A stretch of 64,000 bases of DNA, taken from contig NW_027191460.1 of assembly GCF_011745625.1 (NCBI RefSeq), forward strand, positions 496,001 through 560,000, in the 5' to 3' direction. This DNA is from Cladosporium halotolerans. Taxonomy: Eukaryota. The position numbers and the translations under genes were made by a program. Numbering within the stretch: position 1 is the first letter of the stretch; every line of letters begins with the position of its first letter. The notes beneath the pieces were generated by a model. The model saw nothing but the letters and a program-made list of their open reading frames with translations. It was not told where the DNA came from and did not search any database. Of the stretch, positions 1-3,219 are shown piece after piece.

Positions 1-593
1 TCTTTCTCCAAATTCGTCCGGAAGCCGGCCCCCACCACGAACGGATCTCACTCGAATGGCACGACAGATCCCCTGATAGCCACCGCGCACCAGTGGGACC
101 CGACAAACCCCGACCTCGTCCCGGATATCAATTGGCGCAACGGCCGCGGCGTGCAAGGCGGCTGGACGTGCGAGATCAACGGCGACTGCTCCTTCCTCGA
201 GAACGGCGAAGAGCGCGGCTGGTAAGAGAAATCCCCACTCGTCCCCCGTCCTCAAACCCCCGGCAATCGTGTATAAGCATTCCCTCTGCGCTGCTTTGTC
301 GAAGCACACTTACGACCCTCACCTCGGGCAACAGGGATTTCAACATCGAGAAAGCACAGTTCGGCGACGACGCTGTTGCGGCTCCCATGCCCGCCACCCC
401 AACCTGACGATCAGATGATTTCAAACAAATTACGCAGGCTTACGGCTCAATGAACAGGAAATTCTCCGGGGACGAATCGTTCCTCAAGGACCCGAATGCT
501 TTCAACGACGCGAAGAACACGGCTGCGCTGGAGGTCGTCGAGGAAACTGTGGATGATGCTGGCGAGAAGGCGGAGGACAAGTCACGGTTATGA
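1..593 (+). CDS. 3' part of a histidine phosphatase / phosphoglycerate-mutase-family protein (Tfc7/tau55 N-domain-like); two candidate terminal exons (335-407 or 458-593)
   Basis: Frame 1 from base 1 reads ...WRNGRGVQGGWTCEINGDCSFLENGEERG(W), with donor GTAAG at 222. Acceptor 334 gives WDFNIEK...PT*; acceptor 457 gives WKFSGDESF...KSRL*. The NGDCSFLxNGEERGW motif is recalled from this fungal family. Confidence 0.7.
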
Positions 594-933
594 TGAGATA
601 CCCTTCTGGAGGACTTTTATGACATGGAGGCATGGATGAGCTCTCGATTGCATTTAGACTAGATCGAAGCGTGACGGTGGCAACACTGGACTGCATTGAT
701 GGCTTGCATAGCGTTGCAAGTGCAAATAGATAGACGGCGACGGATGGTAGTAGAACATGAGACATGGAAACAGTTTCACGGGTGGACATAAAGCTTTTTG
801 AAATTGAGCTACTAATTCTGTTCCCATTTTCGCCCAAATTTCGAATGACCCAAACATTGACGCCAACCCGACCTGTGCCACGCTAAAACTTGCAGCTCAA
901 GTCAAGACAGCCCCGTTTGATTCCGTGAAGCGC

Positions 934-1817
934 TTAGGCCGCGGTGATGGCCTTGGTGCGGGCGGCACCACGCTGGCGGGAGGAAAGGTGGAGGCCCTGC
1001 TCGCGGTGGACCTTCTGGGGGGCCTTCTGGACGACCTCCTCACCCTCGGTGAGGATCATCTCGATGTGGCAGGGGTTGGACATGTAGGGGTTGATCTAGG
1101 CATTGTTAGTGAGTGTTGCGCATACATGTCTGTGGATAGTGTTGACTCACGCGACCGTGGGCACGGTATGTCCTGCGGCGCTGCTTGGGGGCCTGGTTGA
1201 CCTGGATGTGCTTGACGATCAGGTTGCTGGTGTCAAGACCCTTGGTGTCGGCGTTGGCCTCGGCGTTCTTGAGGAGCGAGAGGAGGAACTCAGCGCTCTT
1301 CACGGGCCAGCGGGCCTTGGAGACACCGAACTGCTTGCCTTTACATCGCGAATCAGTATCCGTTGTTCAAGACCACGCCTATGTGTCTTTTCTTTCAAAA
1401 GTTTCCTCCGGGTATCCCAATATTCGTATGCATCCTCGCACATGGCTATAGGCAACACCCGCTTTCACAGGGCCTTCACGTACCTTGAGCAGTACGGCCA
1501 GTGCTCCCGGCATATCTCCGCATGGGGACGGCCTCGGCGTGGCCCTTGACGTTCTCGAGGTACTGGAGAGCGCGGGTGACCTTCCAGCCGTTGATGGCCT
1601 GCGCGGTCTCGCGGGTGTTCTTGAAAGAAACACGGAGGTAGGAACCGCGAGCGCGGGCGGACTTGGCCGACTCGATGTGGGTGGCGGCGTAACGGACCTG
1701 GTGGTGAAATTCATGGTCAGAATTATGTTCGTCTCAAATCGCAAGGGCGCCGTTGAAACACTGAATTTTGCAATGGCGCAATTAGAGCGTTTGGCGAGCA
1801 GAATGTTGACATACCAT
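934..1817 (-). CDS. RPL17: 60S ribosomal protein L17 (uL22)
   Basis: Exons 1817-1815 (ATG only), 1697-1484, 1338-1151, 1095-934; contains [23 protein letters not shown] and [23 protein letters not shown]. Confidence 0.97.
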
Positions 1818-2143
1818 CTTGACTGATTGCCGCTGGCTAGAATGTTAGTAACGGGGTGAGGTCGGAGTCGTGAGGTCGCAAATCGCAAAGCAAATCTCGA
1901 CACGGCAGCCGGCCTCGCTGGGGAGAGTAGTGGGCTCGAAATTGGCCTTGGCGGGAACTTTTGGCTCTGCGGGCCGCGCCGTAGCTACCGCTCGCGAAGT
2001 CCGCGGCAAGCTCGGTCTCTGCAATTTTCGCTGCAGAGGAAAGCTTCAAAGCTCGAGGTTCGGCTTTGCACAAATCTTTGGGCTGGCGCATACGATTGAG
2101 CACCGGCACACGATCCTTCGACAACACATCACACACAGAAGAG

Positions 2144-3219
2144 ATGGCTTTCACACCCAGAGGAGGACGTGGCGGCGGTGACCGCGGTGGTCGTGGCGGC
2201 GCTCGTGGCGGCCGTGGAGGTGCCCGCGGCGGTGGTCGTGGTACGCATTTTGCGCTGCTAGACGAAAGATGCGACGAGCTGGGCTAACATCTTGCAGGTG
2301 GCTTCGGCGGTGACAGGGGTGGCCGCGGTGGTGCGCGCGGTGGTGGACGCGGCGGTGCTCGTGGTGGTCGCGGAGGTGCTCGCGGTGGCCGTGGTGGTGC
2401 GGCGGGCGCAAAGGGTGGCCAGAAGGTCATCATCGTAAGTTGCGGCAGAGTCTTCGAGAGCGTGAATACTGGATGACTGATTCCATATTACAGGAGCCCC
2501 ACAGGCACGCCGGTGTCTTCGTCGCTCGCGGCAAGGAGGATCTGCTGGTCACCAAGAACTTGACCCCCGGCGAGGCCGTCTACGGCGAGAAGCGCATCAG
2601 CATCGACACCCCCGGCGCCGGTGCCCAGGCGAACGGCGAGACCCCCACTGCGACAAAGACTGAGTACCGTGTCTGGAACCCCTTCCGTTCCAAGTTGGCT
2701 GCTGGTATCCTCGGTGGTATGGAGAACATCTACATGGGCCCTGGAAGCAAGGTCCTTTACCTGGGTGCTGCGTCTGGTACTTCGGTGTCTCACGTTGCCG
2801 ATATTGTCGGCCCTACTGGTACTGTCTTCGCCGTCGAGTTCTCCCACCGCTCCGGCAGAGATCTCGTCAACATGGCCACCAAGCGCACCAACGTTATCCC
2901 CATCGTCGAGGACGCCCGTCACCCCCTCAAGTACCGCATGCTCGTCAGCATGGTCGACTGCATCTTCGCCGACGTTGCCCAGCCCGACCAGGCCCGTATT
3001 GTCGGTCTGAACGCCCACCAGTTCCTCAAGGTCGGCGGCGGTGTTGTCATCTCCATCAAGGCCAGCTGTATCGACTCCACTGCCTCGCCCGAGGCTGTCT
3101 TCGCCCGCGAGGTCACCAAGCTTAGGGAGGAGCGCATCAAGCCCAAGGAGCAGCTCACCCTCGAGCCTTTCGAGAGAGATCACGCCATGGTTTGCGGTGT
3201 GTACAACAGGTCGGGTTAG
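2144..3219 (+). CDS. NOP1: Fibrillarin, rRNA 2'-O-methyltransferase
   Basis: N-terminal RGG/GAR domain, two introns (~2241-2297, ~2436-2493), motifs [29 protein letters not shown] and [10 protein letters not shown]. Confidence 0.98.

Follow-up and report, generated by a model that had tools for sequence, protein, structure and literature searches.

Two alternative 3' splice sites give a histidine phosphatase gene predicted products with and without a peroxisomal targeting signal

The histidine phosphatase gene at the beginning of the window (the whole stretch of 64,000 nucleotides analysed, C682:496001-560000 of a 27.9 Mb genome) has two 3' splice sites for its last intron, and the proteins predicted from them differ in whether they end in a type 1 peroxisomal targeting signal (PTS1). 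This arrangement is conserved among related loci, the distal site is used and the intron is also found retained. We consider it probable that the two 3' splice sites serve dual localisation, placing the product of one gene in both peroxisome and cytosol. In the mechanism we propose, the two sites would compete for a single donor, so that one gene gives two complete phosphatases of the type represented by yeast Huf and the tau55 phosphatase domain (tau55-HPD). As both branch sites appear to be weak (non-consensus), neither 3' splice site would win outright. Skipping the proximal site would give a form ending in SRL, probably the main and older one, which would be imported into peroxisomes by Pex5; using it would give an enzyme that lacks the signal and stays in the cytosol. 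When both sites fail, the intron would be retained and the product would stop at a Trp codon.

The window opens inside the gene, which starts 947 nt upstream (Table 1). The donor GTAAG at 222 splits a Trp codon in phase 2 and so cuts the final conserved motif in the folded domain, W-x-F, which means that each alternative exon must complete it. Both do. The acceptors, at 334 and 457, lie 123 nt apart and are in phase, and the W-x-F restored by each aligns with the W-x-F of the yeast tau55 and Huf chains. Splicing to the proximal acceptor is predicted to give a protein of 311 aa whose tail of 24 aa lacks a PTS1, and splicing to the distal acceptor one of 332 aa whose tail of 45 aa ends in SRL; the distal exon matches residues 286-330 of a Cladosporium fusiforme protein by tblastn. 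Retention of the intron reads TGG TAA, and the product then stops at Trp288 (288 aa). A previous sequence-only reading had described the split Trp codon, the two in-phase acceptors, the W-x-F in both products and the SRL end peculiar to the distal one, and all of these coordinates hold.

Table 1. Positions of the features of the gene; numbers without a prefix are window positions
Feature	Position	Strand	Remarks
Exon 1	L001:554-589	+	12 codons, contains RHG motif
Intron 1	L001:590-894	+	305 nt; joint present in X1 and X6 contigs
Exon 2	L001:895-1721, 3' part = window 1..221	+	275 codons plus two bases of Trp codon
Common 5' splice site GTAAGA	222..227	+	used in X2 and X6 contigs; X1 reads through it
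Putative proximal branch site ACACTTACGA	306..315	+	non-consensus; putative branch A 312, 23 nt from AG end
Proximal alternative exon	335-407, TGA 405-407	+	acceptor AG 333-334; W-x-F-x-I-E-K tail
Putative distal branch site GGCTTACGG	436..446	+	non-consensus; putative branch A 442, 16 nt from AG end
Distal alternative exon	458-593	+	acceptor AG 456-457; W-x-F-S-G-D-E tail; joint 221^458 in X2, X6 contigs
PTS1 tripeptide Ser-Arg-Leu and stop	582..593 (S-R-L 582-590, then TGA TGA)	+	tail predicted disordered

The same reading had called the two segments alternative last exons. Alternative 3' splice sites they are, but last exons in the strict sense, each with its own poly(A) site, are less favoured: the proximal stop and the distal branch motif are only ∼30 nt apart and the X1 contig runs through both exons, which favours a common 3' end, although contigs cannot show RNA ends. 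A cassette exon was ruled out by the lack of a good donor within the proximal exon here. Readthrough of the proximal stop into the distal exon was likewise rejected: the two are in frame at this locus (123 nt), yet the same holds for no more than 8 of the 26 distinct two-acceptor loci, as expected by chance. No RNA structure was supported in intron 2 (z 0.78), and Rfam gave no matches at E 0.1 for six loci. Splice choice does account for the three different ends at which this gene has been annotated, since of 120 homologue annotations 60 end at the Trp, 26 in the distal tail and 15 in the proximal tail.

To place these features in a wider sample, JGI metagenome contigs were scanned for the motif that precedes the donor. 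This gave 99 loci, 80 of them with long flanks, and hence a classed set of 100 including our own. Two acceptors are present in 34, one in a further 34, and 17 are intron-less; in the remaining 15 the distal exon lay beyond the contig DNA or was not found. The 34 two-acceptor loci collapse to 26 distinct ones. In one single-acceptor relative (L063) the donor of this intron is of the GC type (GCAAGT).

Tails were scored against a strict PTS1 consensus that we take to be [SAC][KRH][LM]. All 24 complete distal tails end in Leu, 21 in x[KRH]L and 13 in the strict form; three (ANL twice and PNL) and several others (GKL, FRL, HRL, PKL and LKL) are non-canonical as PTS1. None of the 26 proximal tails ends in a PTS1-like tripeptide. 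The same split is seen among the 120 database homologues, where x[KRH]L ends 24 of 26 tails of the distal type and none of 15 of the proximal type. In addition, all 23 single-acceptor relatives end in x[KRH]L, and many distant representatives end in SKL, SRL or similar. A broad PTS1 consensus is given in the consulted part of PMC12316961, which also uses SRL-tagged GFP as a PTS1 control in Aspergillus nidulans. In the C. fusiforme model of the distal form, mean pLDDT is 91 for residues 281-290 and under 50 for 309-330, so that the PTS1 is predicted to sit on a flexible tail beyond the folded domain. Import of the SRL form by Pex5 is highly likely; a TPR search did not identify Pex5 itself.

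Within our sample the PTS1 tail thus appears as the general form and the proximal exon as restricted to a lineage. Because relatives with a single exon carry only the PTS1 tail, a peroxisomal enzyme looks like the default to which a form without PTS1 was added, and the distribution among the sampled loci suggests that the PTS1 form is the older of the two. This would be the reverse of the polarity in fungal GAPDH and PGK, which the sequence-only reading had cited.

An alternative is that the exons mainly exchange the C-terminal segment of the enzyme, altering substrate or partner binding or stability, with localisation a side effect. The residues that follow W-x-F are indeed conserved differently in the two products (F-x-[MI]-E-K proximally, F-S-G-D-E-S-F-L distally), and where the model of the proximal type shows, at low confidence, a helix (284-295), that of the distal type shows coil. 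The clearest conserved difference, however, lies in the last three residues, 20-45 aa past the domain on a variable linker, and the proximal tail is conserved neither in length nor in sequence after about residue 10. We therefore regard a swap of enzyme properties as an unlikely main function, and dual localisation as the better account of the two tails.

RNA evidence came from Logan contigs that we guessed to be RNA (95-99% alike), in 4 of 24 listed runs. Contigs X2 and X6, from two studies, contain the junction 221^458. In X1, intron 1 is spliced out and intron 2 retained, whereas X2 retains intron 1; X5 has no intron joints and may be DNA. The junction 221^335 is absent from the contigs of all four runs, contigs being a form of data that drops rare variants. 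In addition, five metagenome contigs from two-acceptor lineages lack the intron (L008, L049, L055, L066 and L071). All five are distal, and three of them also lack intron 1, which marks these three as spliced RNA. Of the two junctions that the sequence-only reading had proposed to count, the distal one is present in two studies and the proximal one appears in none of these contigs. Since contigs lose minor forms, this suggests that the distal form is the major one and is compatible with proximal splicing. Two region searches, in which variants within 90% clusters are hidden, found no transcript-derived protein with a proximal tail among 9 and 19 candidates.

Protein annotations do include the proximal form. 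A Fulvia fulva database protein ends in a proximal tail, and near-identical Cercospora proteins are annotated with different tails, one of each type. In a study of F. fulva (PMC11694984), two isoforms are recorded for the gene CLAFUR5_02520 in both isolates, at the transcript as well as the protein level (S5, S6 and S11-S13 Tables), one labelled tau55 and the other YNL108C, with no Pfam difference between them in the rows consulted, S15 included; the gene is absent from S16 Table. CLAFUR5_02520 is probably the orthologue of our gene, its tie to the proximal-tail protein (P0019) being by name only. The type of event is not stated in those rows and such calls are common (∼40% of F. fulva genes were counted as alternatively spliced, and 71% of events were intron retention), so they lend weak support to two phosphatase isoforms.

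The branch-site consensus of fungi is CTRAY, and it is from this and from their position that we infer the conserved motifs in front of the acceptors to be branch points, and weak ones. Of the branch-like motifs proposed by the sequence-only reading, CTTAC at 309-313 and 439-443 falls in conserved columns of an alignment of eight loci, as islands in a diverged intron, while CTCAC (318) and CTCAA (446) lie outside such columns. The distal GCTTACG is invariant in all eight. Among the 26 distinct two-acceptor loci, CTTAC precedes the distal acceptor in 22, and the proximal acceptor is preceded by CTTAC in 11, TACTA[GT] in seven and CATACG in two; a canonical CTRAY is nearby at four distal and four proximal sites. 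Canonical CTRAY was found in intron 1 of 18 of 19 loci from two-acceptor lineages (by eye; 21 were examined and two from other lineages set aside) and at 14 of 19 single-acceptor loci outside the Dothideomycete group described below. All six single-acceptor loci that have lost the proximal exon (L016, L017, L052, L054, L060 and L061) keep CTTAC at the remaining acceptor, which suggests that intron retention may there have become the route to a form without PTS1.

Background counts are less informative about CTTAC: after 661 donor-like sites in 264 kb, a crude and annotation-free background, its excess was 5.7, similar to that of a control motif (4.4), whereas the four CTRAY motifs gave an excess of 49. 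The pattern CTTACG-N8-24-YAGG occurs three times in the window, both of these acceptors included; as 2.4 occurrences would be expected, the number by itself carries no weight. In most Cladosporium-like loci another, TTACGCA-like motif is present immediately 5' of the distal branch motif (window positions 430-437), where it may serve for binding or as a reserve branch site. Intron 1 is 177-317 nt long in two-acceptor lineages and mostly 46-83 nt elsewhere (exceptions, L033 and L065), with no evident conserved inner element and no Rfam match. Directly 3' of the distal stop (598-603), and in some aligned relatives, is ATACCC, which matches the motif bound by Khd4 in 3' UTRs of Ustilago.

These data also bear on the possibility that the proximal site, or retention of the intron, leads nowhere productive and merely adjusts how much peroxisomal enzyme is made, through an early stop, a longer 3' UTR, decay or an unstable protein. 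Every spliced intron 2 junction seen is distal, X1 and X2 each retain an intron, and the weak branch motif outlives the proximal exon where that exon is lost. Against this, an unproductive outlet would have no need to keep W-x-F-x-[MI]-E with a third-position bias, and no intron is evident 3' of the proximal stop. We rate regulation of this kind as improbable to the same degree as the swap of C-terminal properties, and prefer a proximal site that yields a second, functional enzyme.

That the proximal exon is under selection is indicated by its codons. In its first nine codons, pairwise differences among 11 Cladosporium-like loci number 79, 78 and 217 at positions 1, 2 and 3 (the pairs are not independent); F2, E5, K6 and F9 never vary, although the codons of E5 and K6 do so synonymously. 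The corresponding figures for the distal exon in the same loci are 0, 0 and 123. The excess at third positions implies coding constraint on the proximal exon, weaker than that on the distal one. Proximal acceptors had been admitted by a loose filter, W-x-[FW], which 2.3 of 26 shuffled introns pass by chance, and a tight motif, W-x-[FW]-x-[MILF]-E, is present in the proximal products of 24 of the 26 loci against 0.01 expected. Both figures are partly circular, since the loose filter served to select the loci and the tight motif was derived from those same loci. Independent support for the exon therefore comes from the codon-position bias and from phylogenetic clustering.

For the latter, a quick tree of 84 rows was built from loci with at least 165 aa upstream, dropping duplicates and adding 28 database anchors. 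With the exception of L021, whose proximal candidate is only 10 aa long and doubtful, the two-acceptor loci in the tree sit in one Dothideomycete group of 49 rows (SH-aLRT 81, not strong), while some Dothideomycete anchors, represented by protein only, fall outside it. Conservation of both exons, which the sequence-only reading had proposed to test, is thus borne out for this group. Two of its loci (L016 and L054) lack the proximal exon, and in one lineage (L017, L052, L060 and L061) that exon has decayed. The proximal exon might be a non-functional relic or a chance look-alike, with the distal exon alone in use, a view consistent with that decay and with the absence of the proximal junction from all contigs. 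We think this very improbable, given the low chance expectation and the retention of the proximal exon together with its branch motif across Cladosporium-, Aureobasidium- and Mycosphaerellales-like loci in an intron that has otherwise diverged. On the evidence of selection, splicing to the proximal site very probably does occur.

The gene itself is single copy in the genome (tblastn) and groups among Cladosporium-like loci in the tree; its nearest named homologue is the C. fusiforme protein, at 84% identity. The product contains a His_Phos_1 domain (Pfam PF00300; E 9e-15, 55.3 bits against a cut-off of 21.7) with the RHG motif of branch 1 of the histidine phosphatase superfamily, encoded by exon 1, and R74 and H185 (C. 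fusiforme numbering) are invariant across 50 sequences. The best matches among solved structures are Saccharomyces cerevisiae Huf (YNL108C; E 6e-34) and the tau55 phosphatase domain (E 5e-33). A fold search with the model of the C. fusiforme protein gave the same two, Huf with Z 29.7 (rmsd 2.2 over 229 residues of 2yn2) and tau55-HPD with Z 29.3, the next family being Sts-1 at Z 20.1. The RHG motif and the W-x-F domain end are common to our protein, Huf (PDB 2yn2) and tau55-HPD (PDB 2yn0); in having no fused TFIIIC domain it resembles Huf and differs from tau55. By sequence and model comparison, then, it is a stand-alone Huf/tau55-HPD-type histidine phosphatase. Members of the superfamily hydrolyse phosphomonoesters through a phosphohistidine, as our enzyme most likely does; yeast tau55-HPD is reportedly active on phosphopeptides.

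The name Tfc7-like, used in the sequence-only reading, is apt as a statement of homology but not of a role in TFIIIC, and the nuclear location offered there as an alternative has no basis. Neither alternative exon encodes a TFIIIC_sub6 domain, which is matched only once in the genome, by a gene of its own on a different contig (C365). According to the part of PMC3799434 consulted, tau95 is bound by the C-terminal domain of tau55, and the phosphatase domain is dispensable for this and specific to S. cerevisiae in TFIIIC. A nuclear TFIIIC subunit as the form without PTS1, for all the homology to tau55 and the database labels 'transcription factor C subunit 7', is accordingly highly improbable, as the tau95-binding domain is here encoded elsewhere.

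Dual targeting by alternative splicing is already known in fungi; what appears new here, within the literature searched, is the phosphatase family and the apparently reversed default. For GAPDH and PGK of fungi, cryptic peroxisomal isoforms were reportedly described by Freitag et al. in 2012. As in our gene, splicing of one GAPDH or PGK gene produces C-termini with and without a PTS1, with dual localisation as the outcome in the accounts consulted (PMC9549241, PMC12316961, PMC3798809). In those accounts, however, the enzyme is cytosolic and the signal is acquired by a minor fraction of it, whereas in the phosphatase the PTS1 tail is widespread and belongs to the sole junction observed; the phosphatase also differs in having two full coding exons that each rebuild the end of the catalytic domain. 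For malate dehydrogenase of Yarrowia lipolytica, the consulted part of PMC3798809 describes an intron that is spliced alternatively to give one isoform bearing a PTS1 and one lacking it, the introns differing by 4 nt, in contrast to the 123 nt between our acceptors, each of which has its own branch motif and exon. A peroxisomal phosphatase is known in S. cerevisiae Ptc5, a dually targeted, PTS1-bearing PP2C enzyme that dephosphorylates Gpd1 in peroxisomes (PMC7217942, as far as seen). Ptc5 thus shares a PTS1 and dual targeting (here predicted) with our phosphatase, but has an unrelated fold and is sorted through mitochondria rather than by splicing.

In line with the sequence-only reading, the freely readable papers that we searched contain no report tying the Huf/tau55-HPD family to peroxisomes or to splice isoforms, the rows of the Fulvia tables apart; the supplements of other fungal splicing and peroxisome surveys may list the gene. 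A phosphatase family with solved structures, for which we found no compartment in print, thereby gains a testable location in the peroxisome. The event would also be a deeply conserved case of alternative acceptors in fungi, where intron retention dominates the records (as in the F. fulva figures above). The paired non-consensus branch motifs are directly mutable, and so offer a way to test how the balance between two 3' splice sites is set in fungi. More speculatively, and with less conviction than we attach to dual localisation, Huf/tau55-HPD phosphatases may be peroxisomal by default in filamentous ascomycetes, a Dothideomycete ancestor having added an escape exon that re-encodes the last domain motif, and the non-consensus branch-site pair, conserved across orders, may be a regulated switch that sets the cytosol-to-peroxisome ratio with conditions. 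If so, this would be a 'cryptic cytosolic' isoform mirroring those of GAPDH and PGK, and the first compartment for an orphan phosphatase family.

The PGK gene of this genome (C24, L122:2690-2850) has a GTAAGT donor that overlaps its stop codon, with a CTGAC branch motif and an AG ∼110 nt further on. Splicing there would give a short extension ending in SLL, similar to the known A. nidulans PGK case. A CTTAC signature common to the phosphatase and PGK was ruled out, this candidate last intron having CTGAC. The neighbours of the phosphatase gene, at L001:1-120 and window 900-3000, we take to be those for ribosomal protein S22 (upstream), ribosomal protein L17 (convergent, minus strand) and fibrillarin; an L17-like frame occupies the same position at several Cladosporium-like loci.
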